DNA of 64,000 nucleotides from an uncultured Acidobacteriota bacterium (GTDB taxonomy: Bacteria > Acidobacteriota > Vicinamibacteria > Vicinamibacterales > UBA8438): contig CAJWLU010000003.1 in NCBI GenBank assembly GCA_913043225.1, positions 160,001 to 224,000 on the forward strand. The letters are read 5' to 3'. A model generated the notes under the pieces. It had not been told where the DNA came from and did no database searches. It saw nothing but the letters and a program-made list of their open reading frames with translations. Of the stretch, positions 25,886 to 38,183 are shown piece by piece (the first letter of the stretch is position 1; each line of letters begins with the position of its first letter). The position numbers and the translations under genes are program-made.

Positions 25886-26529
25886 GCCTCAGTCTCGCGT
25901 TCGTCGGCACGGAGGTCTGAGAGGTAGTACCAGAATCCGCCGCCCGCCAGCGCTCCGACGGTGAGGACCTTGAGCAAGAACCTGGTGGTCAGCTCACCCC
26001 CCAGCAGGTTGAAGACCAGCGTGGTGACATCGCCGATCAGCACCGCCGCCGCCACGAACAGCGTGAGATAGGTCAGCCACCGCCGCACCTTCGATGCCCG
26101 CTTCGCTGGGTCGGCCGCCAGTTCCTTGCCTACCAGCTTGGAGAGTCCGACGAAGAGTGGGCCGGCGACGATCAGGAGAGATACGGACCAGCGGATTTGT
26201 TCGCGCATGACCTGGACGGGTCGCGTGTAGCTGAGGTCTGGGAACGCGTAGTTGATCAGTTCGAAGAGGAGTTGGCCCAGGCTGAACGCACTCAGATAGA
26301 GCGCCGTGAACAGCAGGAGGTAAACGAAGGCGTCCCTGGCTGACAGGTACGGCTGCGGGCGGGGGACTGGGAGCGGAAATTCCACGTCAGCGTAGCAGGT
26401 AAGGGCTCCGCGAATGTCCGCCCCATCCCAGCCGGCGTTTTTGAGCGCCGTCCGCAGGCGAGATCGATCTACACCGCGGGCCAGACCGTCCCTGACGAAT
26501 CGCCGAAGTTCTTCGGGGGCTGCCATCAC
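25882..26529 (-). CDS. DUF5671-like membrane protein
   Basis: SARDAFVYLLLF, RRWLTYLTLFVA, LLGGELTTRFLLK; four TM segments. Confidence 0.75.
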   Translation of the reverse strand: MMAAPEELRRFVRDGLARGVDRSRLRTALKNAGWDGADIRGALTCYADVEFPLPVPRPQPYLSARDAFVYLLLFTALYLSAFSLGQLLFELINYAFPDLSYTRPVQVMREQIRWSVSLLIVAGPLFVGLSKLVGKELAADPAKRASKVRRWLTYLTLFVAAAVLIGDVTTLVFNLLGGELTTRFLLKVLTVGALAGGGFWYYLSDLRADERETEA

Positions 26530-26535
26530 TCCTCC

Positions 26536-26997
26536 TCAGGTATCCAGTCTGTGTGTGAGCTCGCGTATCGTACCGACCGTGCGCTCTAGGTCGGCCTCGG
26601 GCAGACCGTCAGCGATTCGGGCGGCCCAGTCGTGACCGACGTCGGTCAGCGCGGCTTCGATCCGTTCACCTTTCCGAGTCAAGACGAGCAAGGGTGAACG
26701 AACATGGTCGGGGTTGGGGTCGTAACGCACGAGGCCGTCCTTTGCGAGCAGGTCTGCGACCCGCTGCACGCTCTGGCGCGACATACCCATGCGCCGGGCG
26801 ATCTGCGGAACGGTCCTGGTTTCCTCGGCCACTGCACCGATGACCTGCCACCGCGCCTGCGTCTGGCCGAGCGGCGCGGTCAATGCGGCGCCGTGGCGCA
26901 GGAGCGCGCCGTTTAACCGAAAGATCTCGAGTACCAGCTGTCGGAGGGTGTCTGCGCTGGCGGGTCGAGTGGCCGGGGTGTACTGGTCTGAACCCAT
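26536..26997 (-). CDS. MarR family transcriptional regulator
   Basis: ARWQVIGAV, TVPQIARRMGMSRQSVQRVADLL, NPDHVRSPL. Confidence 0.9.
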   Translation of the reverse strand: MGSDQYTPATRPASADTLRQLVLEIFRLNGALLRHGAALTAPLGQTQARWQVIGAVAEETRTVPQIARRMGMSRQSVQRVADLLAKDGLVRYDPNPDHVRSPLLVLTRKGERIEAALTDVGHDWAARIADGLPEADLERTVGTIRELTHRLDT

Positions 26998-27004
26998 ATG
27001 ACAC

Positions 27005-27035
27005 TATTGAACCATATAGACATTATTCTGTCAAT
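27005..27035 (-). promoter_or_regulatory. marR promoter with putative operator palindrome
   Basis: Minus strand TTGACA-17-TTCAAT just upstream of the ATG; imperfect palindrome atagaca-ttattc-tgtcaat at 27016-27035. Confidence 0.5.
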
Positions 27036-27268
27036 ATGAATAGCCGTGCTACTTTGCCGCATTTGCCGGCGACCCGAGGCGCTGGTCGGGTTATGACTGG
27101 ACGGGAAGGACCGGTGGCTGAGGTCGCAACTCACTACCTCCGCGCGGTCCTTGGGGGAGGCACTCGTGTGGCTACGAGCCCCATCCAAGTCATGGAAGAT
27201 CCCGACCAGACGCCTCGAGTGACGCCCGCCCGCAGGGCCGGAGAGCCTGCTCCAACCCCGCGGTCCTG

Positions 27269-27502
27269 CTAGTGGGGAGTCGTGTGCTGTATATCGACTT
27301 CTGAATCGAGTGTCCGCTCTTCGTCTTCGACTCCGAACTCAACATAGGCGTCGCCAAGCAGACGCACCAGCTCCCGTAGTTCTCGCTTGGTGAGCTTCAA
27401 CACTAGGGGACCCAGATCTACGTGGATGCAGCCGTGTTGACACTGCGACACGGCCCAGTGCCGCCGTTTACGGGGTTGCTCTTCTGACGTTTCCTGTTTC
27501 AT
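27269..27502 (-). CDS. Small CxxGCxH protein (77 aa), last gene of the receptor operon
   Basis: RBS ggag; 12 bp downstream of the receptor stop; VSQCQHGCIHVDLG motif. Confidence 0.7.
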   Translation of the reverse strand: MKQETSEEQPRKRRHWAVSQCQHGCIHVDLGPLVLKLTKRELRELVRLLGDAYVEFGVEDEERTLDSEVDIQHTTPH

Positions 27503-27514
27503 GATGTCTCCGTA

Positions 27515-29791
27515 CTACCAATCAAGGGCTAGAGACGTGATGACGCTGCGTCCCGGGCTCGAATAGCGGTCGATTACTGGGTCGTTCGTGCCTCGGCCGC
27601 GGACGTTCCACCACTCAAAATAGGTTTCATCGGCTAGGTTCAGTAGTCCGATTCGGAAGGTCACCGCGTCGGCCGGCCGGATCGAGGTGACGAAGTCAAC
27701 CACCTGGTACCCGTCCGGCGCGAATTGTCCGTCACCGGCATCCAAAGCAGTCTGTCCTTCGGTGATCCGTACCGACAGCTCGCTTGTCCACCAGCCGTCT
27801 GGGTCGATGTACTGGAGCCCAATGACGCCTTCGTCCGGCGTAATCGAACCGAGGGGTGTGTCGGTGTCGCCGGACACGTCGGTCCCGGTTATGGCGGCCC
27901 AGCTAGCGCGGAGGCGGACACGGTTGGTGAGATACGTGTCGGCCCTCACTTCGACTCCCCCGATCTCTACCTCTGACAGGTTCTGGCTCTGGAACTCCAG
28001 GAGGAATGTGGCGGGGTTGAACCCGACCGCGGTTAGCTCGATGAAGTCATCGTAGCGATTCGAGAAGGCGGTGACATCCAGGCTTGTCCGGCCAAATGCG
28101 GCCCGCAGCCCAACTTCAATGTTGTCGCTCGTCTCGGCATTCAACCCCGCGTTCGGGAGCGTGGTGTATCCGCCCGCTAGGTTGGTGAAGCCGGTGTTGA
28201 TCGCGCTGTAGGGAGGTGCGCGGAAACCGCCGGCATACTGGGCGTGCGCGGTTAGGTCGTCCGTGATCAAGACCGTGGCGCCAATCTTCGGCGACATCGC
28301 GTCGGCCGAGAAATCAGCTGGCACCGGATTCAGTCCGGCAAGGTAAACCGCGTCCTCCTGGTTGGCGTCGAGTGAGTACCGGTCGTAGCGGACTCCCGGG
28401 ACGATGGTCAGACGGTCTACGCGGAGCTCGGCTTGCACATAGACGCCGGTCTCATCAACGTCGCTCTCTGGGAAATACTTCGCCGGGAAGATGAGGCTGG
28501 TCGGCACCGGCGCACCGGTGATGATGTTCGTTTCGCTGCGATCACGCAGCACATCGAACGCATCACGTGTGAAGCTGGCGCCGAAGGTCAGCATCAGCCC
28601 GTTCTCGGTACCCCCGACCCAGTGTTGTCCTTGCCCTGAGGCGCCGAAGCCCCGCTGCTCGAAATTGACGGTGCCGGTCCTCGAGGACAGCGTGGGCGGA
28701 CCGAACGCGACGATTGATCGGGACTCGTCTACGACTTGGGAGGTGTCGCCCCCCTGGCCGTAGACCCGCCAGGTGAGCACGTCTAGTCCACGCTGCGGTG
28801 TCAGGACGTGATCGAGCGAGATTCGCCAGCGCTTCTGAGTGTCGAGGGCCTGCGCGCTCGTCGTGCTGAACGCGACCGGACCGTAGAAGGTTGTGCCCTG
28901 AAGCGAGTACGCCGTCGTGTTGATCTGGGTGTCGAACACCTCGATCGCGCTTCGGAAGATGTTTCCTGGAGACGCAGTGAAAACCATCTTGCCGAGCGCC
29001 TGCAGGCCTTCGCGGTCTTGAGGGTTTGGTGCGGTGCGGGTGACGTCCAGTGTTTCGATTGTGCCCTGGTTCTTGGTCTCGTTTCCCCGGCTGTAACTGG
29101 TAAACAGCGACCCCTGCACGCTCTCGTTGCCTAGGGCGAACGCGAAGTTGCCGCTGGTATCGTCAGAGCGCCCGTCCCAGGTGGTCTTGACGCCGAGGTA
29201 GCGCTTCTGGTCCAGCAAGTAGTCGGCAGGGTCTTTCGTGAACAAGGACACGACACCGCCTAGGGCGTCGCTGCCGTAGAGGGCCGAGTTGGCGCTCCGG
29301 ACGATCTCGACCGACTTGAGCGTGTCCACGTCGAGGCCTGCCTGATGGATGCTGAACGGCCCGAAGTCGAACTGCTCGGAGGTCTGTACCCCATCGACCT
29401 GGGTCATGACACGGTTACCACCCACGCCACGAATGTTGAAGCCGTTCAAGCCGAGTCGGGTTACGTCGTTCTCGACATAGACGCCAGGTTCGAACTTGAC
29501 GAGGTCGGAGAAGCTCTCGACCATCCGCTCCGCGATGGTTTCGCTATCGATGACCGACACCACGCCCGGGGTCTCCCTCAGCGATGACGGCGAAAGCGTG
29601 GCCGTGACCGTTATCTCATCGAGATACGTCGTCGGCTCGTCCTCGGTCGACTGATTGGTGCTGGCACTAGTCGACGTTTGCGGCTGAGCCAGCACCTCGG
29701 CGGGCAGGAGTGCCACCGTTAGCGAGAAGACGAGGACGGCTCCTGCCCCCTGGGGACCGCGTCCGCGTCGGAGCTGTTGTACGAGCTGCAT
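27515..29791 (-). CDS. TonB-dependent heme/hemoglobin-type receptor
   Basis: TonB box DEITVTAT; FNIRGVGGNRV; IVRSANSALYGSDALGGVV; FRAP and NPNL-like (NAGLNAE) motifs; C-terminal W. Start uncertain (29791 or 29842). Confidence 0.9.
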   Translation of the reverse strand: MQLVQQLRRGRGPQGAGAVLVFSLTVALLPAEVLAQPQTSTSASTNQSTEDEPTTYLDEITVTATLSPSSLRETPGVVSVIDSETIAERMVESFSDLVKFEPGVYVENDVTRLGLNGFNIRGVGGNRVMTQVDGVQTSEQFDFGPFSIHQAGLDVDTLKSVEIVRSANSALYGSDALGGVVSLFTKDPADYLLDQKRYLGVKTTWDGRSDDTSGNFAFALGNESVQGSLFTSYSRGNETKNQGTIETLDVTRTAPNPQDREGLQALGKMVFTASPGNIFRSAIEVFDTQINTTAYSLQGTTFYGPVAFSTTSAQALDTQKRWRISLDHVLTPQRGLDVLTWRVYGQGGDTSQVVDESRSIVAFGPPTLSSRTGTVNFEQRGFGASGQGQHWVGGTENGLMLTFGASFTRDAFDVLRDRSETNIITGAPVPTSLIFPAKYFPESDVDETGVYVQAELRVDRLTIVPGVRYDRYSLDANQEDAVYLAGLNPVPADFSADAMSPKIGATVLITDDLTAHAQYAGGFRAPPYSAINTGFTNLAGGYTTLPNAGLNAETSDNIEVGLRAAFGRTSLDVTAFSNRYDDFIELTAVGFNPATFLLEFQSQNLSEVEIGGVEVRADTYLTNRVRLRASWAAITGTDVSGDTDTPLGSITPDEGVIGLQYIDPDGWWTSELSVRITEGQTALDAGDGQFAPDGYQVVDFVTSIRPADAVTFRIGLLNLADETYFEWWNVRGRGTNDPVIDRYSSPGRSVITSLALDW

Positions 29792-29902
29792 GGCTATACT
29801 CCAAATGGGTTCCGGTCCGCCCCATGCGGTACCGGCGCTCACTTGGGCGCTCCCGTTCGGCTCCTACACCATGGGCGGGGGCGCCCACCTCTGATCCAAC
29901 GT

Positions 29903-31216
29903 TCAGTTCAGTGCCTTGTCGTCCGAGCTGACTCGGATAAGTTCGGTCCCGGCCCGGATCAGGATCGCATCGTCAACCGCCGCGATCGCTGTGACGGGTG
30001 CGCTGACCGACAAGTGGTTAGTAGCCACAACCTGGGCCGTTTTCGCCGATGCCGCCAGTATCTCGGTCGTACCGTCCTCACCAAAGAAGAAGACGTGGTC
30101 TCGGTGACCGAGCGGAGTAGCCCACGTGGACGCGGAAAGCCGATGGGTCCACTGGACCTCGCCCGATTGTGGGTCCAGGCAGCGTGCCGCGCCCGCTGGG
30201 TTGATCCAATATATGCACTTGCCGTACGCGAACGGGGAGCCGAAGTTTGAACCGCTACCGGTCTTCCAGGCGACGGCCGTTTCGTCGAGTTTGCCGAGCC
30301 CGCCCCGTCGGATGGCAAGGTTTGCATCGACCGCCAGTCCTCCCACCACGACGAGCTCGTTCGTGACCGTTGGGGAGGGCACATGGTTGCCGCTCAGACC
30401 GGCGAAGTGCCAGCGGCGTTCGCCGGTGACGGCGTCGAAGCCTTCGATCTGTCCGGACGCGCTGACGACGATCTCATTGCCTTCGGGCGATAGCACTGGT
30501 GTGGTCCAGGCGACTCCGGCGTCCCGCTCGGTCCGCCATAGCGTGTCGCCAGTGGTTCGATCGACCGCGAGAAGATAGGAGTAGGTACGTCGAGTCAGAA
30601 GTACCACGACCGCACGGGGAGTCAGCAGCAAGGAGTTTCCGACCCCGTGATTACCTCCTACGGATCCATAGTCCTTGGTCAGATCACGTTGCCAATGCAC
30701 TGCACCGTCGTGGCCCAAGGCGATAAGGTCGCCGCTGGCGAAGAAGCTATAGATGCGGTCTTGGTCGACGACTGGAGTGGGCGCTGCTTTGGAGACGTAG
30801 TCATTGAACTCGTGTGGTTCGGAGGCATCGAAAGCCTGGCGCCACTGTTCGCTGCCGTCTTCCAGATTGAGCGCCGTGACCCACAGACGTTCTTTCATGG
30901 CGCCTTCAATCGAGGTGACGAACACTGAACTGTCCCAGATCACCGGGGAGGACTGCCCAAACCCCGGGGTGGTGACACGCCAGGCGACAGTCTGGTCGGA
31001 CCAGGTAAGTGGGAGTCGGGCGGCGTGGCTGACGTTGGTACCGTCGCCGCGGAAGCCCGGCCATCGCGTAGCGGCCTCGGAGGTCGCAAAAACGAAACCC
31101 GCGCGCCGAGTTTGGGCAGCATGGTCTGCCAGGAGGAGGAAGACCAAAGCCACGATACAGCCGCCCGCAGAGGGCAGTAGCCCTCCGAAGATCGGTGGAG
31201 GCGCTAGCGATCGCAC
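29903..31216 (-). CDS. PQQ-like/BamB-type beta-propeller repeat protein
   Basis: WPGFRG, GQSSPVIW, APTPV, repeated A.D..TG...W blades. Confidence 0.85.
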   Translation of the reverse strand: MRSLAPPPIFGGLLPSAGGCIVALVFLLLADHAAQTRRAGFVFATSEAATRWPGFRGDGTNVSHAARLPLTWSDQTVAWRVTTPGFGQSSPVIWDSSVFVTSIEGAMKERLWVTALNLEDGSEQWRQAFDASEPHEFNDYVSKAAPTPVVDQDRIYSFFASGDLIALGHDGAVHWQRDLTKDYGSVGGNHGVGNSLLLTPRAVVVLLTRRTYSYLLAVDRTTGDTLWRTERDAGVAWTTPVLSPEGNEIVVSASGQIEGFDAVTGERRWHFAGLSGNHVPSPTVTNELVVVGGLAVDANLAIRRGGLGKLDETAVAWKTGSGSNFGSPFAYGKCIYWINPAGAARCLDPQSGEVQWTHRLSASTWATPLGHRDHVFFFGEDGTTEILAASAKTAQVVATNHLSVSAPVTAIAAVDDAILIRAGTELIRVSSDDKALN

Positions 31217-32985
31217 CGGCGCCCCCCTTTCAGGCTGACGCCGGCAAGGCTGGCGTCGCTGTCACAGCGGCTACGTTCGTCAGGCTGCCACCCCATGATC
31301 TGGCGCATCGCTGCCTCGCCTTGAGTGATTAAGTCACCGATCCAGCGAGCAAATAGCGGGTGGGGAGCGAAGCCAGCTCCGATCTGCACTCCGTCGAGGT
31401 CGCTGAGTTCGTACTGGGATGGGCCGGTCCCGGTCATCCGGGCTGGAATGGCCAGCACTGTCCGGCCGAGGGCTCGTTCGGCTTCAATGATGCCGTGGAT
31501 CTGGGCCTCGGCTTCCTCGCGGGCGTCGGGCCAGTCTTCTCGCCAGTTGGCCCAGTGGAATGCCGCGAAGTTCGGTTCGTGCTCCTGCATCTGCGAGGCG
31601 ATCGACTCAAGGTTCTCCAACCACGCCGCGTTTCCCTCGTCGCTGCCCGCACCGTGACCAAGGAGCAGCACGGCCTCCTGCGAGGGATTGTTAGAGAGGG
31701 CTCGGGCGCGCGCCGCGAGCGCCTCCGCAAATGCCGGGTGGTCTTCCAGGCCGCCAAGGGTGGCGAAGATCGCCGCAGAGCGCACCCGAGGGGGTGGTCC
31801 CATGCCCATGGACATGCCCGGTTCATCGCCGAGCCCCATCAGATACTCGATGCGGTCGAGAAATGACGCTGCTTGGGCGAAGACCCGAATGAGCACGATG
31901 GCCCGCGCACCGCGTTCTTCCAGGCGTGAGACGGCTCGACCGAGCACGACCGGGTCGGCCATCGAGAAGGCATATTCGACCAACCGGCTCTGGGTTAACT
32001 CGGCGAGCGGCTGGCGAATCGACTCGTTCCAGTCGATGTCGGCGCCGTGCGGCATCAGCACGTACCCGATCTCGTTGGCTGTGGGTGGAATCCAGCGATT
32101 GGCCTCTTGGGCCATCCAGACTGTTGCCATGGGGTCTGGGATGACCCCTTGAGCGAGGAACTCCACCGAGACCCCGGCAAGGCTCCTACGTAGGGAGCCG
32201 TTCAGGTCCATCATCGAGTCCATGCGGGAGCCCAGGTGCCAGGGGATCACCAGGACGCGATCATGGGCTTTGGCCAGCGCGTCTGCAGCTGGTCGAATCC
32301 GGTCGAGCGACGATTGGAGTTCATCGAAATCACCACTGGGTCCTCGTACCACCACGACGTCAGTGGCTGCGAGCCCAGTTGCCCGGCTAACCCTCCCGAG
32401 AGTGTCTGATAGGTCAGCTTCCATGGCGGAAGTCGAGCTTGCGTCGACCGCTCCGGAGCCGACCACGAGGACCGCGACGTCCGGTGGAGGGGCCCCGGGC
32501 ATACCTGGTCGCACGCCTGCGGTAGAGAGGCGCTCAATCAGGATCTCTTCGGCCAGATACGAAGCTCCGAACGGGTCCGCCACGGCAATGTCTAGTCCGG
32601 TGTTGTTGATGGCGTCGTGGACCCGCACCAGCAGGGGGTGAGTACCGGCCAGGAAGAGCGGCAGTGCCGCGATCTTAGATGCCCCGTTGAGGCGGAGACG
32701 CTCTATCGCAGGTGAGGCGAAGCGCATCGGGTCACCGTCCCACGGAAGGAATGCGAGTTCAGCCCGGAAGGCTTCTGAGAACTTGCGAAACGCATCGCGC
32801 ACTTCGTCGTTTCCGAGAAATCCACGGTCTGGGGCCACGACGAGGAAGCCGACCTGACCAGGATCGGCCGGTGGTACCAGTCGCGGCACTCGGGTTTCCA
32901 TGACGTGCTGCGCTGACGTCGTGGTTCCGGCAACCACAATGAGGGCGAAGAATGCCGCGAGGTAGCGTATGGGCAGTCTGGTCAT
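31204..32985 (-). CDS. Exported tandem CbiX/SirB-like (class II chelatase fold) protein
   Basis: Signal peptide ending TSA-Q; GFLVVAPDRG, IAALPLFL, YVLMPHG, VEYAFSMAD, EAVLLLGHGAGSD, FAPHP. Confidence 0.7.
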   Translation of the reverse strand: MTRLPIRYLAAFFALIVVAGTTTSAQHVMETRVPRLVPPADPGQVGFLVVAPDRGFLGNDEVRDAFRKFSEAFRAELAFLPWDGDPMRFASPAIERLRLNGASKIAALPLFLAGTHPLLVRVHDAINNTGLDIAVADPFGASYLAEEILIERLSTAGVRPGMPGAPPPDVAVLVVGSGAVDASSTSAMEADLSDTLGRVSRATGLAATDVVVVRGPSGDFDELQSSLDRIRPAADALAKAHDRVLVIPWHLGSRMDSMMDLNGSLRRSLAGVSVEFLAQGVIPDPMATVWMAQEANRWIPPTANEIGYVLMPHGADIDWNESIRQPLAELTQSRLVEYAFSMADPVVLGRAVSRLEERGARAIVLIRVFAQAASFLDRIEYLMGLGDEPGMSMGMGPPPRVRSAAIFATLGGLEDHPAFAEALAARARALSNNPSQEAVLLLGHGAGSDEGNAAWLENLESIASQMQEHEPNFAAFHWANWREDWPDAREEAEAQIHGIIEAERALGRTVLAIPARMTGTGPSQYELSDLDGVQIGAGFAPHPLFARWIGDLITQGEAAMRQIMGWQPDERSRCDSDASLAGVSLKGGRRCDR

Positions 32986-33123
32986 AACGTCTCTCTGCGT
33001 TGCACGTCACGACCCCAGTTGCCTGTGATGCGGGCGGGTGTCGTCACGCTCTTCGTGCGGTCGGCCCTTCTGGACCAAGCGCTCGACCAGCTCGCCGGGT
33101 GCTGCTACACCTAGCGGACTGTC

Positions 33124-33152
33124 TTGATATTGAGAATGAGTCTCAATATCAA
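33124..33152. promoter_or_regulatory. Fur-family operator box 1 (upstream of the chelatase-propeller-receptor operon)
   Basis: Perfect 12-5-12 inverted repeat ttgatattgaga-atgag-tctcaatatcaa. Confidence 0.8.
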
Positions 33153-33200
33153 CATTAAGGTGAACTGTATGTCCGACCGAATCGGTCGGTCAAGGAAAAA

Positions 33201-34415
33201 TTATTTGAGGCGAGAGCGTTCGTGGTGGGATCTCAAGAGGCCCTCTCTTGCGAGTCGCCGAATCAGTGTGAGGTTTCCTGCGGTGTCGAGCGGACCCGGG
33301 AGTTCAAGGGCGGTAAACCTTTCATTAGCACAGATGAACTCGATGGCTTCGGCGACATGGAGCGGGAACCGCAACTCCTGCCCAGCGAAGCACATCACGC
33401 ACTCGTTCTGCGAGAGGTACGAGTGGATGGCCATCTCTCGTCGAATGACCACCGTATCCTCGTTCACCAGATGCTGGTCGGCCCGCTGAGTCAGAAGGTC
33501 TGAGAAAAGCGGTTGATTGGCCGCAGATACCTCACTGGCAAACCGTCGCCAGACATCCTCAAAAGAGCGATCGAGTGCCAAGTCAAAGTGCTGGCGAGCC
33601 AGGGTCGCGGTCTCTTCTGGTGTGAGTTTCCCACTCGCGAAACCGACTGGGAGGTTGGCGCGGAGGGCTGGGTTCTCGAGGGCTGCGGCCGACACTGCGT
33701 CGGCGAGAAAGTCAGCCCATGTAAAGGCGGTCAATCCGAGGGTGATGTGAAGAGAAGCGGTATCGACCGACCGCGCGGCATGCATCAGTCCTCGCGGAAG
33801 ATAGACGAAGTCGCCCGCATGAAGATCGAACTCGTCGATTGTGCGCCCAGGGCGATCGACGTCCGGATTGCACTTCTGCCCTCGCAAGGGCAGCGCGATC
33901 GGGCTCTCGAAGACACTCCACCGTTTTGAGCCGCTGACTTGCATCACGAAGACGTCGTGGGTGTCCCAATGGGGCTTGAACCCTTGGGCCTCTGGGGGCG
34001 TGAGATAGATGTTGGTCTGGATGCGGGAACCGAAGCGCTGCCCCAGCGCGACGCAAAGCGCCGCGAGTTGGGGGAGGCGACGATGGAGCCCACGAAAGAT
34101 GACGGTCGCGCCTTCGTCGAAGAGGCGCGTCACTTCCAGCGGTTCGGCTACCCCGGCTGGGCCGGTGAACCGGCTGGCGTCGATGGCGGTCTCGTCGGCT
34201 CGCACTAGTGAAATGTCAGGGAAGCGGAGCGCATGCGTCCCCAGCACGTGGTCCAAGTCGGCGAAGGTCAGGAGCGACTCGAAGTAATTGGGCTGTTGGC
34301 GGTGGACGACCCGGTGTCGTCGCTCGTAGAACTCATCCTCGAAGGTTGAAGTCGAGAGCGGATCGAGTAGCCAGGCGTACGGAGCGTTGGCGATGGGCGG
34401 CGTGTGTGGCTTCAT
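33201..34415 (-). CDS. JmjC/cupin_4 Fe(II)/2-oxoglutarate oxygenase (NO66/YcfD-like)
   Basis: NIYLTP, FKPHWDTHDVFVMQVSGSKRW (HxD, K), YLPRGLMHAA (distal H); C-terminal winged-helix-like LIRRLAREGLL. Confidence 0.88.
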   Translation of the reverse strand: MKPHTPPIANAPYAWLLDPLSTSTFEDEFYERRHRVVHRQQPNYFESLLTFADLDHVLGTHALRFPDISLVRADETAIDASRFTGPAGVAEPLEVTRLFDEGATVIFRGLHRRLPQLAALCVALGQRFGSRIQTNIYLTPPEAQGFKPHWDTHDVFVMQVSGSKRWSVFESPIALPLRGQKCNPDVDRPGRTIDEFDLHAGDFVYLPRGLMHAARSVDTASLHITLGLTAFTWADFLADAVSAAALENPALRANLPVGFASGKLTPEETATLARQHFDLALDRSFEDVWRRFASEVSAANQPLFSDLLTQRADQHLVNEDTVVIRREMAIHSYLSQNECVMCFAGQELRFPLHVAEAIEFICANERFTALELPGPLDTAGNLTLIRRLAREGLLRSHHERSRLK

Positions 34416-34477
34416 GGTGTCGCCTGGCCGCTGCGCGAGCGCCAGCCCGTCGACGCTCTGTCTGGGAAGGCCTGGCG

Positions 34478-34945
34478 CTACTGATGAAGCTCGACGCCCT
34501 GGGCGACGAAGCTTACTTCGGTTGCCGTGCCGTCAGGGTTTCGAGTCAGCGCGACACCCTCGGCGATGAGGTGATCCGCGTCGGCTTTGGAGAAGACGTT
34601 CGTTTCCAGGCGGCCTTCGAGGCGAGCTCGTTGTCCGGCTGAGTCCGTGGGGACGAAGAAGGCGTAGTCTCTGAAAGTTACCCGGATTCCACGGTCGTCG
34701 CCAGGCCTGACTAACTCCATCCAGCAGCCCTTGACCTGACAGACCCGCTTGACTTCTCCCTCGAGCGTCAGCAGACGATCCGCATACTGGTCAGCCTGTT
34801 CGACAGCTTCGTCAAGCCCAATCGCTGGGGAGCCGCCGAGCCTGGTTCCTCGGGTCACGATGTTCTGGGCGGTGGCCGAGCCTATCGAAAGCACTGCGGC
34901 GATGGTGAATGCGCTGATCTGACGAGTAGGGCGTAGTGATATCAC
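34478..34945 (-). CDS. Exported DUF4920-like protein (OB fold)
   Basis: Signal peptide ending ATA-Q; VCQVKGCWMEL, RVTFRDYAFFVP. Confidence 0.8.
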   Translation of the reverse strand: MISLRPTRQISAFTIAAVLSIGSATAQNIVTRGTRLGGSPAIGLDEAVEQADQYADRLLTLEGEVKRVCQVKGCWMELVRPGDDRGIRVTFRDYAFFVPTDSAGQRARLEGRLETNVFSKADADHLIAEGVALTRNPDGTATEVSFVAQGVELHQ

Positions 34946-35054
34946 CTAAGGTCCCTTCTGTGAGCGTCGGACAGAGCTTTAGCATAGCAGAAGCCGATCC
35001 GACCGCGAGGTGAGCGGTGAGGTCTGTGCAAGCGTACCTAAGAGTTTTTGATTT

Positions 35055-35084
35055 ATTGAGATTGAGACTCAGTCTCAATATGTT
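35055..35084. promoter_or_regulatory. Fur-family operator box 2 overlapping a sigma70 promoter, between the divergent DUF4920 and flavodoxin genes
   Basis: Perfect 9-1-9 attgagact-c-agtctcaat (35061-35079) plus an extra attgag hexamer; + strand TTGAGA-17-TATGTT. Confidence 0.8.
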
Positions 35085-35094
35085 ATATGTAGAG

Positions 35095-35184
35095 ACCCAC
35101 CTGCCGGGTAGGTGGGTGTAGCGGGATATCGGGGAAAGGGGACCCCAGATAGATGCCCGTGGGGCGAGGCAACGCCCCACGGGC
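35095..35184 (+). ncRNA. Candidate structured sRNA or 5' leader with three hairpins
   Basis: acccacctgcc/ggtaggtgggt; tatcgggg/cccc-a-gata; perfect 12-bp gcccgtggggcg/cgccccacgggc; begins about 10 nt after the -10 box. Confidence 0.35.
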
Positions 35185-35361
35185 CGTCGAACCTGCATCG
35201 GCCGTCTGAGAGCGAATCAAACGGGTAACCAGCGTCGTCCGACCTAGCGAATGTAGCACACCGTTGGACGGCTGCTGCGGCCACTTTCTGCATGCGTGCA
35301 TCTACGGCGGACCAGGTCGAGGATCAGCACGGTGTAGCTACTTCCCCAAGGACCTCAATAC

Positions 35362-35922
35362 ATGGAAGCGTCAATCGCCATCTTCTTCGGATCCACCACC
35401 GGCAGTACACAGATGGTCGCGGAAAAGATCCGTGATCTCCTGGGTGAGCGGCTCTCTCACCTCGCCGATGTGAACACGGCGGAAGCGTCTGAACTCGAGC
35501 AGTACGACGTGATCTTCTTCGGAGTGCCAACGTGGAACGTTGGTGAGATGCAGGATGACTGGGCCGATTTCATTCCCAATATGTCGGAACTGAACCTTGC
35601 AGGAAAGAAGGTTGCCTTCTTTGGGGTTGGCGATGCGGTCGGCTACGCCGAGAACTTTCTGGATGCTATGGGCGAGCTCTGGGCGGCCGTGTACGCACAA
35701 GGCGCGCCGACACTGGTAGGCGTGTGGCCGACCGACGGATACGTGTTCGAAGCATCGAAAGGGCTTTACGACGACAACCATTTCCTCGGCGTGGGTCTCG
35801 ACGAAGACAACGAATCTCACCTAACAGATGAGCGACTGGACCTCTGGCTTGCGCAGGTGCTCCAGGAGCTGGCCTTGGTTGAGGCCGCAGGAGAGGCCGT
35901 CGACGAGGCGGTTGCTCAGTAG
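35362..35922 (+). CDS. fldA: Long-chain flavodoxin
   Basis: [52 protein letters not shown]. Confidence 0.95.
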
Positions 35923-35950
35923 CCGTTGGTGCTATGCAGGAAGGAGAATA

Positions 35951-36556
35951 ATGATGAACTACACCGGGCCCAAAGTGCGTCTGAGTCGAAAGCTGGGCGT
36001 CGCCCTGACCCCGAAGGGGCAGGTGGCGATGGAGAAACGGCCGGGGCGACCTGGCCAACATGGTGGGATGCGTCGCCGCCGGCAGGAGACGTCTTACGGA
36101 AAACAACTGCTCGAAAAGCAGCGTCTACGCTTTCAGTACAACGTACACGAACGTCAGATGCGCACCTACTTTAAGCGGGCGATGCGGAGAGAGGGACCGA
36201 CTGGAGATAACCTCGTTCAGCTTCTCGAATCGAGACTTGACGCCCTCGTATATCGGGCGGGTTTGGCCCGTACGATCTACGCGGCACGTCAGTTCGTTAA
36301 TCACGGCCATATCGACGTCGATGGCAAGCGTGTCGACATTCCCTCCTTCAGCGTTCGCATCGGCCAGACCGTTGGAGTCCGAGAGAAATCCCGTCAGCTG
36401 GATTGCTTTCGGGACGGACTGGGACTAGAGAGCGCGCCTGCCTATCTGAGGGTGGCAGACACCGAGCTTTCGTTCACGAAAGACCGCGAGCCGGAAAGAG
36501 ACGAAGTTCCGGTCATTTGTGACGTTCGCCAGGTGGTCGAGTTCTATTCCCGCTGA
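35951..36556 (+). CDS. rpsD: 30S ribosomal protein S4, zinc-ribbon-less (C-minus) form outside the alpha operon
   Basis: [62 protein letters not shown] aaggag. Confidence 0.96.
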
Positions 36557-36830
36557 CGTCTGTTTTTGGGTCGAGTCTGGCTCAGCTAACTGGTGATGAC
36601 CAGCTGGAAGGGGTGTGGTTGATGTCGTTCGGTAGTTCTCCGAGCTGCCAGTGTTGATAGTAAGGCTGTTGACGATTCGAGACTCGTCCTTGTCACGCGT
36701 GCGACGCTGCTGATGAGGGCGGGGCGTAACTCTGAACGGCGAGCGTCGGTCAACGGCCGCTAGCCGGGTTCTTCAGGAATTTCCGTGACTAGGCCGGACC
36801 AGAATAAGTATCCGGCTCCCACGAGAGCGT

Positions 36831-37136
36831 CTAACGGGCCGCCGCTCGTTTACCGAAAAGCCTACCGACAGCTTGCATCCGCTGCCAGAAAAAGTCGAAC
36901 TGCCCGAGCAGCGTGCCGTACCCGATCAGGAAGAGGTGATACATCGGAACCATCACCACGAGGTAGACGGTCCACTGTACCCATCTCTGGGCATCCGGCG
37001 GTAGCAGGAAGGCGATGAGTGGAGCCTTCACCAGTACCGTCGACGTGCCAGCCAGCGAGAAGGCCACCAGGACGGCGACGGTGCGCCAGAGTGTCAAGCG
37101 CCAGCGCTCCTGCATGCGCTGCAGGGTCGCTTTCAT
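36831..37136 (-). CDS. Small membrane protein (DUF6787-like)
   Basis: LVAFSLAGTS, PMYHLFLIGYGTLLGQFDFFW; TAATG overlap with the upstream peptide gene. Confidence 0.75.
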   Translation of the reverse strand: MKATLQRMQERWRLTLWRTVAVLVAFSLAGTSTVLVKAPLIAFLLPPDAQRWVQWTVYLVVMVPMYHLFLIGYGTLLGQFDFFWQRMQAVGRLFGKRAAAR

Positions 37137-37342
37137 TACTGAGAGTCGCTATCGGAGTCTGTGCCGTCGCCGCCGCTGCTCGGGCAGGCCGCCGTCATGG
37201 CCGCGCTCACGCCGATGGCTCCGGCGATCACCGTCTTGGCCAGGAATGAGCGCCGGTCCACGCGGGCCGTCTGAATGTCGCTGTCGGACAGCGTGGCGGT
37301 CCCATCCTTCAGTTTCTTCGCTTCCGGGTGTCTGGTCGTCAT
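37136..37342 (-). CDS. 68-aa Tat-signal/lipobox precursor with an acidic Ser/Asp tail
   Basis: RBS aggag 9 nt before the ATG; DRRSFL twin-arginine motif, hydrophobic stretch, TAAC lipobox, tail CPSSGGDGTDSDSDSQ. Confidence 0.75.
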   Translation of the reverse strand: MTTRHPEAKKLKDGTATLSDSDIQTARVDRRSFLAKTVIAGAIGVSAAMTAACPSSGGDGTDSDSDSQ

Positions 37343-37400
37343 TGGTCTTGTCTCCTGATTGTCCGAAGGCATCGGCCTAGCTTGACCGGCACCTCGAGTA

Positions 37401-37442
37401 GCATGTAATTTACACCGTATGAGATTGAGACTCAATCTCATA
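37401..37442 (-). promoter_or_regulatory. Fur-family operator box 3 overlapping the promoter of the Tat peptide gene
   Basis: Perfect 12-1-12 tatgagattgag-a-ctcaatctcata (37418-37442); minus strand TTGAGT-17-TAAATT. Confidence 0.8.
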
Positions 37443-37681
37443 TTTCTCTAGTGAAATCTGCCCTGAGTCCATTCCTCGAGGGGGTGTGCATCCAGCCGGT
37501 TGAAACCTCGCAGGCCGGCGACCTGCTTTTCATGCCTCGGCGACAGATGAGGTCGACAATCCAGAGCTTTCTGCCTTCGATCTGGGCGCCCTGATTCTAG
37601 AGGTCGCCTGGGGACAGCTTGCTGGCGAGCGTGCCGAACTGAGTAGCGTCCATTTGCTACAGTGAGTTTCGACGAAAAGGG

Positions 37682-37769
37682 TGGTGCGGAAGGGGGGATT
37701 TGAACCCCCATGAGCCATTGGCTCGCTAGCCCCTCAAGCTAGTGCGTCTGCCAGTTCCGCCACTTCCGC
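37682..37769 (-). tRNA. tRNA-Leu(GAG)
   Basis: gcggaag...cttccgc-acca acceptor; ctagc-ttGAGgg-gctag anticodon arm; long variable arm; ggttcaaatcc T-loop; downstream of secG. Confidence 0.97.
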
Positions 37770-37796
37770 TCGGGTGGGTGCGGTGGGTGCACCGCC

Positions 37797-38183
37797 CTAC
37801 TGTGGTGCGGCTGGTGTGTCTGCTGCTTCCTCGGAGGTTTCGGCCGGGGCTTCCGCCGGCGTGTCTGGCGCTGGAATCTCGACCGGCGCGGTCGCCGGCG
37901 CGGCGGTCGGTAGGCCTGGGCCGTCGACGCCGCTCAACACCGATCCGGTGGAACTTTGCCCCGTGATGGCGAGTGCCATCGCCCCCACCATAAACAGAAT
38001 GCCGAGCACCGTGGTGGCCCGTGTCAATACCGTGGCGCCGGCACGGGCGCCGAACGCGGTCTGACTGCCGCTTCCGCCGAAGGCGGCCGCAATGTCGCCT
38101 CCTTTGCCCTGCTGCATCAGCACAACGGCCACGAGCAAGAGACAGGTAACCACGTACAGTGCGTTGAGAAGAATGCCCACCAT
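37797..38183 (-). CDS. secG: Preprotein translocase subunit SecG
   Basis: VLMQQGKGGDIAAAFGGSGSQTAFGARAGATVLTRAT. Confidence 0.95.
   Translation of the reverse strand: MVGILLNALYVVTCLLLVAVVLMQQGKGGDIAAAFGGSGSQTAFGARAGATVLTRATTVLGILFMVGAMALAITGQSSTGSVLSGVDGPGLPTAAPATAPVEIPAPDTPAEAPAETSEEAADTPAAPQ

Follow-up and report, generated by a model that had tools for sequence, protein, structure and literature searches.

A Tat-type lipobox peptide paired with an NO66-like JmjC oxygenase in uncultured Acidobacteriota, a candidate ribosomal membrane-tethered iron chelator

Lipoproteins that are at the same time RiPPs (peptides made on the ribosome and modified after translation) have already been defined as diacylglycerol-bearing RiPPs (DAG-RiPPs), with DybA, NedA, the lipidated bufferins and the oxazolins as members (PMC13056109), and the class of RiPP-lipoproteins is therefore not new here. 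The available part of that account makes no mention of JmjC, cupin, twin-arginine translocation (Tat) or Acidobacteria, and its authors anticipate that lipidated RiPPs either need no leader or make use of a follower. Here we describe a short peptide gene and the JmjC oxygenase gene linked to it, both found in a 64,000-nt stretch of DNA from an uncultured Acidobacteriota bacterium (the whole stretch is called the window below). The family to which the peptide belongs resembles the DAG-RiPPs in design, and its enzyme, its leader and its regulation are of other kinds.

Three further groups of described systems bear on this locus, each as presented in the available portions of the papers cited. 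The ribosomal oxygenases (ROX) NO66/RIOX1, MINA53/RIOX2 and YcfD catalyse C3-hydroxylation of a residue in an i/i+2 motif (PMC4556315, PMC9994133, PMC6006756). Fe/2-oxoglutarate (2OG) hydroxylases that act on RiPP precursors include CzlI, CinX, CanE and ThoJ/TsaJ, of which CinX and CanE beta-hydroxylate Asp (PMC11575548), and cupin-4 proteins occur with nitrile hydratase leader peptide (NHLP) precursors (PMC9426513). Lipopeptide siderophores with beta-hydroxyaspartate (OHAsp) include potashchelin, serobactin, pacifibactin and cupriachelin, potashchelin being OHAsp-Ser-Gly-Ser-Ser-OHAsp-Thr-Ser-cOHOrn (PMC7100376). In this cited literature, the named RiPP metallophores bind copper, and the beta-hydroxyaspartate iron chelators are products of non-ribosomal peptide synthetases (NRPS). 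Iron is released from a siderophore by the di-heme siderophore reductase FoxB (bioRxiv 10.1101/2021.01.28.428567), and the same PepSY_TM family also serves copper, as in CrpH (PMC13038864).

The precursor is a real, conserved gene. A sequence-only reading of the window had described a 68-aa open reading frame (ORF) with the motifs LSDSDIQT, DRRSFL and TAAC, a hydrophobic helix and a 16-aa product, and each of these is present (residues 18-25, 29-34 and 50-53 for the three motifs; core CPSSGGDGTDSDSDSQ). An AGGAG lies 9 nt 5′ of the ATG at 37342; an alternative upstream ATG would give a 101-aa ORF, which is unlikely because of this AGGAG spacing and because all eight database homologues are 65-76 aa long. 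The precursor has no Pfam match and reaches the Tat models only below their thresholds, with 14.5 bits for the Tat signal model TIGR01409 (cut-off 16.7) and 15.2 bits for TIGR02811, a formate dehydrogenase region TAT target (cut-off 48.45). At the sequence level, a Tat route is indicated by RRxFL ahead of the hydrophobic helix and by TatC, which is encoded in the window's genome (G000) together with Lgt and LspA. An ESM Atlas search returned unnamed clusters only, at 0.88-0.90, with no usable structure match. In a single RNA run examined for expression, 0.10 of the words were present, as contigs, and there was no depth in the peptide-holding bin. The features of the locus are collected in the table.

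Features of the locus by position in the window, with strand and basis
Feature	Position	Strand	Basis
Precursor peptide gene, 68 aa	37136..37342	-	leader + Tat-type signal + lipobox + D-x-D core
Leader motif L18-x-D20-x-D22-I23-x-T25	37265..37291	-	conservation; predicted binder of the JmjC RRE-like domain
Twin-arginine motif DRRSFL	37241..37258	-	R30, R31, S32, F33 invariant, n=55 homologues
Lipobox-like TAA-C53	37184..37195	-	C53 invariant in 55 homologues
Predicted mature core, 16 aa	37139..37186	-	4 Asp, DSDSD run holding three
NO66/MINA-like JmjC Fe(II)/2OG oxygenase, predicted modifying enzyme	33201..34415	-	PF08007, E 1.7e-26
C-terminal winged-helix domain of the oxygenase (residues 317-398), RRE-like	33222..33467	-	three strands then helices
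Perfect 12-1-12 palindrome, two overlapping Fur-type boxes, upstream of precursor	37418..37442		24 of 25 positions
Fur-type boxes in tandem, separating the DUF4920-JmjC unit from the divergent flavodoxin-rpsD unit	35052..35079		box pattern
Fur-type box upstream of CbiX-like / beta-propeller / TonB receptor unit	33124..33152		box pattern
DUF6787 membrane protein, accessory	36831..37136	-	PF20584; start overlaps precursor stop
Second rpsD (uS4), inserted co-regulated gene; the Cys motif present in the housekeeping copy is missing	35954..36556	+	behind flavodoxin
Long-chain flavodoxin, inserted co-regulated gene	35362..35922	+	TIGR01752 above cut-off
DUF4920 protein, same unit as JmjC	34478..34945	-	PF16267
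CbiX-like chelatase, PQQ-type beta-propeller, heme-type TonB receptor; co-regulated neighbours, non-core	27515..32985	-	family matches

Homologues were taken from 81 fetched loci and comprise 78 intact ORFs, and the core and box statistics omit the frameshifted L118 and L031, with one type-II ORF of L115 sitting among the 66 type-I rows. At 50% identity the precursors form 79 clusters, a handful of which resemble unrelated Tat proteins. A phylum sample of 401 genomes gave precursor matches in 21 at E 0.001, strong ones in seven (the window's genome, five family members and G501); the other 14 (E 1e-5 to 1e-3) were classed as generic Tat signals without individual inspection. The layout is fixed, with a variable N-terminus, L-x-D-x-D-I-x-T, V-D-R-R-S-F, the hydrophobic helix and the Cys. 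The leader motif occurs in 70 of the 78 homologues, L18, D20 and I23 are conserved in at least 90% of 55 homologues, and the spacing from RR to Cys is 23 residues in 65/66 type-I rows. Among the 55 homologues, third codon positions hold 21138 differences, compared with 9551 and 7963 at the first two.

The cores, 14-60 aa long, fall into two types. Type I (66 rows) reads C-P-[GS]-G-[TS]-D-S-D, followed by TDSDQA-like repeats in variable number, and has no Cys other than that of the lipobox. There are 1-8 D-x-D units per core, and Asp in D-x-D is the sole repeated unit common to type-I cores; the 60 unique ones hold 231 such units against a shuffle mean of 112 and maximum of 136. The sequence-only reading had recommended a neighbourhood check for (D-x)n tails; in type I, 500 of the 556 Asp lie in D-x-D. 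Type II (12 precursors) has two further Cys in the core and the same leader and enzyme as type I. Beside 8/12 type-II precursors we observed a protein of 150 aa that begins with a hydrophobic stretch near its N-terminus (L028:9527-9976, L032:9993-10442 and others) and has no Pfam or NCBIfam match, and several of these loci also contain PQQ-type enzymes. Two different precursor genes stand close together in one locus in L115:3546-4083 and L231:1060-1797.

The peptide is tightly linked to the oxygenase gene. Co-occurrence of the two had been put forward as a test by the sequence-only reading, and it is borne out, the genes usually being adjacent: the 104 family genomes yield 78 peptide matches (83 rows less three weak ones, with two frameshifted pairs merged), and 71 of these are no more than 5 kb away from a JmjC orthologue (80 orthologue or fragment rows kept, distant paralogues excluded), with 65 of the 71 pairs head-to-head, 6 in tandem and a median gap of 179 nt. 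Both genes are present in 66 genomes and neither in 34; one has the peptide with only a JmjC fragment alongside, and three have JmjC alone, two of them 84-85% complete with partial matches and the third a 31% paralogue. The closest 80 GTDB JmjC loci, a set which overlaps heavily with the family set, have the peptide within 5 kb in 80/80. All 80 records carry Acidobacteriota titles from several classes, and the peptide is also found at 19/19 loci titled other than Vicinamibacterales/-aceae/-ia, among them Bryobacterales, Terriglobia, Thermoanaerobaculia and Versatilivorator. Where one genome has two peptide types (G017, G052, G091), each has its own JmjC. A motif scan of metagenomes gave 28 loci, 25 of them family loci after removal of three unrelated proteins, and 16 of the 25 have a JmjC in the available DNA (one being the window's own locus); two distant CDxD-type peptides are JmjC-linked there as well. 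The linkage holds without the box, in tandem orientation and in several lineages outside the main clade, down to 47% identity. The window locus itself is a rearranged outlier with a peptide-JmjC gap of 2727 nt, in line with the earlier placement of the enzyme about 2.7 kb away, downstream of DUF4920 and another copy of the box.

In a quick tree of the enzymes, in which 28 of 69 inner branches are open and the window stands on a long branch, JmjC sequences of other Acidobacteriota classes (L132, L142, L168, L178, L197, L208) nest among family sequences, a pattern that horizontal transfer would give. The type-II enzymes group with a support of 64, and since 44 of 500 shuffles were equally low, this grouping is no evidence. 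In one relative, a ribosomal protein L31 gene lies directly 3′ of JmjC (L025:8598-8849).

The enzyme has the architecture of a ROX protein, with JmjC, dimerisation and winged-helix domains, an HxD...H triad (H149-W-D151...H212) and the 2OG Lys. Among solved proteins, human NO66 and MINA53 come closest to it (E 1e-30), in agreement with the full-length model, and it has no NCBIfam match. H149, D151, H212, K164, T139 and Y137 are invariant in 55/55 sequences, as are the pocket residues R131, Q133, H153 and G227. NO66 reads an N-H-x-H motif, taking two side chains into two pockets where they are held by Tyr328 and Ser421 (PMC4556315, PMC9994133). In the alignment, Tyr328 and Asn326 of NO66 are kept as Y137 and N135, whereas the His-binding Ser421 aligns with the invariant Gly227; the same strand carries Arg131 and Gln133, which are invariant too. 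We infer from the sequences that the pocket has been remodelled for D-x-D. The C-terminal domain is predicted as three strands then helices (predicted local distance difference test score, pLDDT, 90), and matches NO66 (Z 12.5), MINA (9.4) and YcfD (6.1-6.7), as well as leader-bound RiPP recognition elements (RREs) at Z 6-7.5, among them those of PbtF (Z 7.5, root-mean-square deviation (rmsd) 3.2, 77 aligned) and TbiB1 (Z 6.9, rmsd 2.8, 72 aligned). For PF08007 proteins whose fold is RRE-like, homologues from bacteria have been noted in RiPP-like contexts (PMC12710340).

A predicted complex of JmjC and precursor scored 0.62, with the best control at 0.02; the mark for this score, a rough guide only here, was reached by 116 of 157 solved pairs and 2 of 215 mismatched ones. 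Contact agreement between runs was at least 38% and the partner pLDDT at least 46. In the model, precursor residues 22-26 pair antiparallel with JmjC strand 346-351, and L18 is packed against helix 376-387, which is the RRE mode of leader binding. The proposal that the long N-region serves as an enzyme-recognition leader thus gains support from the conservation of the leader and from this model. The confident interface spans residues 13-37 and includes Arg30, Ser32, Phe33 and Leu34 of the Tat motif, so that export could be gated by the enzyme; the model suggests that JmjC may hold the precursor back in this way.

The regulatory context points to iron. The perfect Fur-family palindrome reported ahead of the precursor is there, and the 19-nt box pattern has five matches in the window (33129, 35055/35061, 37418/37424), with 0.05 expected and five reached by 0/100 shuffles. 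The box at the precursor matches 15/19 positions of the Xanthomonas Fur consensus, and the family box consensus 17/19 (PMC1790865). Of the 66 type-I starts, 53 have a TGAGAnTnAnTCTCA box no further than 150 nt away, mostly near -39; shuffles gave a mean of 1.9 and a maximum of 6. The top box sites in the window's genome precede the ApbE-containing unit, the CbiX/TonB unit, the flavodoxin and DUF4920-JmjC units, a lipoprotein-like gene, a FeoA-FeoB fusion and the precursor. The only Fur-family gene of this genome encodes a Fur-rubrerythrin/ferritin-like fusion and adjoins an Fe-S biosynthesis gene (L129:2728-3708, G000:C2); its product scores 72 bits for Fur versus 61 for Zur, both below cut-off. 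Judged by its box, its Fur-family gene and the iron genes under the same box, this is probably a Fur regulon. The genome (96% complete) has no match to the NRPS condensation or IucA/IucC families. Its strongest box stands ahead of a unit of four genes, which encode an exported protein of 467 aa, a pair of unnamed proteins and ApbE (L123:575-4051, G000:C1).

A third gene usually accompanies the pair. A FoxB-like PepSY_TM gene lies 3′ of 56/66 type-I precursors, co-oriented and with a median gap of 111 nt, and its four His are invariant in 54/54. Pro directly follows the Cys in 65 of the 78 precursors; Pro after a lipobox Cys can favour inner-membrane retention, and the peptide would thus sit beside the reductase.

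We regard the pairing of peptide and enzyme as well supported, with high confidence, and consider it very probable that the peptide is a substrate of JmjC. Across its hosts, the module would be a two-gene RiPP-lipoprotein system, usually joined by the third gene. When iron is scarce, the precursor gene would be released by a Fur-family repressor; in the cytoplasm, JmjC would use the RRE-like domain at its C-terminus to bind the LxDxDIxT leader and would iteratively C3(beta)-hydroxylate Asp of the [T/S]-D-x-D units, which is the likely chemistry if the peptide is indeed its substrate. Tat export, diacylglycerylation of Cys53 by Lgt and cleavage by LspA would follow, and we expect export and lipidation with good confidence. 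The product would be a membrane-anchored lipopeptide with several alpha-hydroxycarboxylate ligands for Fe(III), and, in most relatives, Fe(III) caught in this way would be reduced by the FoxB-like PepSY_TM protein and could then be taken up, e.g., through FeoAB, which has the same box. Granting substrate, hydroxylation, export and lipidation, a role in iron capture has much in its favour. The peptide is thus a plausible iron chelator, and the full chain up to that chelator is offered tentatively, at slightly less than an even chance. The basis for this mechanism is the reality of the gene, the linkage, the conserved box, the D-x-D pattern and the family and fold of the enzyme.

Several points weigh against this iron-chelator reading. 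Modification, lipid and metal are steps that we infer. Seven of the 78 family peptides have no JmjC within 5 kb, and nine of the 25 metagenome loci lack one, six being too short or at an edge and three long-flanked. In the quick tree, 60 of 72 enzymes form one clade, and since most loci belong to it, the linkage counts are not independent. The RRE-like fold by itself does not mark a RiPP enzyme because NO66, MINA and YcfD all have it; in the complex model, the partner fold is uncertain, the core (53-68) is not confidently placed, and the pass may be due in part to likeness to solved RRE complexes. TAAC is a non-canonical lipobox, and two loci (L189:4574-4787 and L200:4574-4787) keep the leader, RRS motif, box and DSD repeats, with the Cys missing and likewise most of the hydrophobic helix, their products possibly being cytoplasmic or non-lipidated. 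Type-II precursors show no excess of D-x-D (35 units vs. a shuffle mean of 31), a box in only 1/12 and a PepSY_TM gene 3′ in 0/12. The window has no linked PepSY_TM, the four PF03929 matches of its genome lying elsewhere, and PF03929 occurs in 99/104 family genomes. The box-controlled rpsD hints at zinc: the N-terminal region of the copy at G000:C1:409938-410228 contains four Cys, the window copy has none, and Cys-free rpsD paralogues are usually tied to zinc as a zinc-sparing trait.

Some of these points would also suit other explanations. It is a distinct, if lesser, possibility that the same RiPP logic serves another chemistry (Ser/Thr/Pro oxidation, a cross-link, decarboxylation), another metal (Zn, Mn, Ca, lanthanides) or a role at the cell surface. 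RiPP 2OG enzymes are versatile, CzlI making Tyr from Phe, and HEXXH enzymes hydroxylate Gln and cleave the backbone; the frequent Pro after the Cys, the two additional Cys of type-II cores outside any iron context and the Cys-free rpsD fit as well. Asp in D-x-D is, however, the only repeated unit that type-I cores have in common, no ZnuA match was found in the window's genome, and among the genes behind the box are FeoAB, flavodoxin and a unit whose last member is a heme-type TonB receptor. That the peptide binds JmjC without being its substrate is unlikely; the enzyme would then be an iron/oxygen-sensing gate or signal-peptide chaperone, or the peptide would regulate the enzyme, and the acidic lipopeptide would stay unmodified. 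The confinement of the confident interface to residues 13-37, with the core outside, is what such a binder would show, whereas the invariance of catalytic and pocket residues in 55/55 enzymes fits a fixed substrate, and one to eight repeats of a fixed unit are as expected for iterative modification.

We consider it quite improbable that the two genes are independent members of one iron regulon, with JmjC a ribosomal oxygenase (of uL16 or another target) and the peptide an unmodified acidic lipopeptide sharing a promoter region. The closest solved relatives are indeed ribosomal oxygenases, divergent genes often share a Fur box, and the window genes are 2.7 kb apart with rpsD in between. However, JmjC is patchy (69/104 genomes) and tracks the peptide, the two stay linked where the box is missing and where they are in tandem, and YcfD aligns with only E 2e-6 over 88 residues, against 1e-30 for NO66, and does not come up in the profile search at 1e-5. 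The enzyme is thus no YcfD orthologue, which speaks against the modification of uL16 that the sequence-only reading had named as a result contrary to its own proposal. It had likewise named a truncated longer Tat lipoprotein, and that the ORF is such a remnant, or spurious, is extremely improbable. The missing Pfam match and sub-threshold Tat models would allow it, but 78 homologues are intact with cores of 14-60 aa, and synonymous single changes outnumber non-synonymous ones, 13885 to 6263. No long Tat-lipoprotein form was found among the homologues, one of the searches being weak by its own note, and only one of 78 further cluster representatives exceeds 150 aa. Overall, three of the four observations that the sequence-only reading had set against itself were looked for and none was found, and the part that did not stand is the proposed handler.

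That handler was the DUF6787-like membrane protein, whose start overlaps the precursor stop (TAATG). DUF6787 is within 5 kb of only 7/80 closest GTDB JmjC loci and was rejected in this role; the conserved partner is the PepSY_TM protein. DUF6787, the second rpsD and the flavodoxin lie between JmjC and the precursor in the window; the last two, like the RRE-like domain of JmjC, do not figure in the sequence-only reading. DUF4920, 62 nt upstream of JmjC, has this position in the window's genome only and at none of the 80 GTDB loci, and homologues of CbiX and of the TonB receptor are near two of the 80 each. In L039 and L033, the peptide adjoins homologues of the window's CbiX-like, beta-propeller and TonB receptor unit (27.5-33 kb). 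The iron-gene block (26001-38000) has a GC content of 0.60-0.64, compared with mostly 0.63-0.69 elsewhere in the window, and ends at a tRNA-Leu (37682-37769), which suggests an inserted island.

Taken together, the iron-chelator reading describes a possible ribosomal, membrane-tethered beta-hydroxyaspartate siderophore, an overall picture of which we remain somewhat doubtful. An NO66-like enzyme would make Fe(III) sites out of TDSD repeats, whose number is tunable, reading a leader hidden in the Tat signal and covering the twin-arginine motif so that the precursor is not exported before its modification is finished. The lipopeptide would feed a FoxB-like reductase dedicated to it, a second, two-Cys class with another role would come from the same leader/enzyme pair, and the ROX winged helix could act as a true RRE. 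If true, this would give uncultured Acidobacteriota a two-gene ribosomal route of iron capture, in a genome with no match for NRPS or NRPS-independent siderophore (NIS) synthesis, would extend the DAG-RiPPs beyond the MNIOs (oxidative enzymes that depend on multinuclear non-heme iron) to a leader-dependent Tat-type form unforeseen by the defining paper, and would add a non-ribosomal substrate for a bacterial NO66-like enzyme. We found no account of the peptide-JmjC family in the literature searched, although supplementary RRE and DAG-RiPP datasets could list its sequences.

Compared with the DAG-RiPPs, as far as the available part of PMC13056109 goes, the present family is alike in its short precursor with a lipoprotein signal, an invariant Cys and repeated core motifs, in the signal-less cytoplasmic metalloenzyme encoded alongside and in the proposed metal binding at the membrane. 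The DAG-RiPPs differ in their MNIO enzymes, Cys-based motifs and copper or unknown roles; a scan of 13 proteins from the window and 123 from neighbouring genes gave no MNIO, and type-I cores have no Cys motif of the kind found in the MNIO-type chryseobasin, bufferin and oxazolin. The present family has, in addition, a conserved leader inside the Tat-type N-region, the predicted binder of the RRE-like domain. From the ROX enzymes, whose domains and triad it has (PMC4556315, PMC9994133, PMC6006756), the JmjC protein differs by an identity of ~22%, by Gly in place of Ser421, by the loss of Arg297 and by the new invariant Arg131/Gln133, and its occurrence is patchy and goes with a peptide gene, not with a ribosomal protein. 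Known RiPP 2OG hydroxylases likewise act on a precursor, in the cases available, as tailoring steps in multi-enzyme, protease-released pathways, whereas JmjC is the only conserved enzyme here, with repeated sites and maturation apparently left to Tat/Lgt/LspA. NRPS siderophores share with the predicted product a lipid tail and two beta-hydroxyaspartates among Ser/Gly/Thr; they use TauD-type hydroxylases, and potashchelin adds a hydroxy-ornithine ligand (PMC7100376), whereas the predicted product would be diacylglycerol-anchored with Asp ligands alone. FoxB and FpvG are like the linked PepSY_TM protein in PF03929, ~380 aa and four invariant His (available part of bioRxiv 10.1101/2021.01.28.428567), and are linked to a TonB receptor, whereas the PepSY_TM gene here is linked to the peptide gene and is absent beside the window peptide. 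If the chemistry is as proposed, the product would work like a tethered siderophore. In our best reading, the system is a DAG-RiPP by design, of unproven membership, and what is new is its enzyme class, embedded leader, Tat-type signal and iron regulon.

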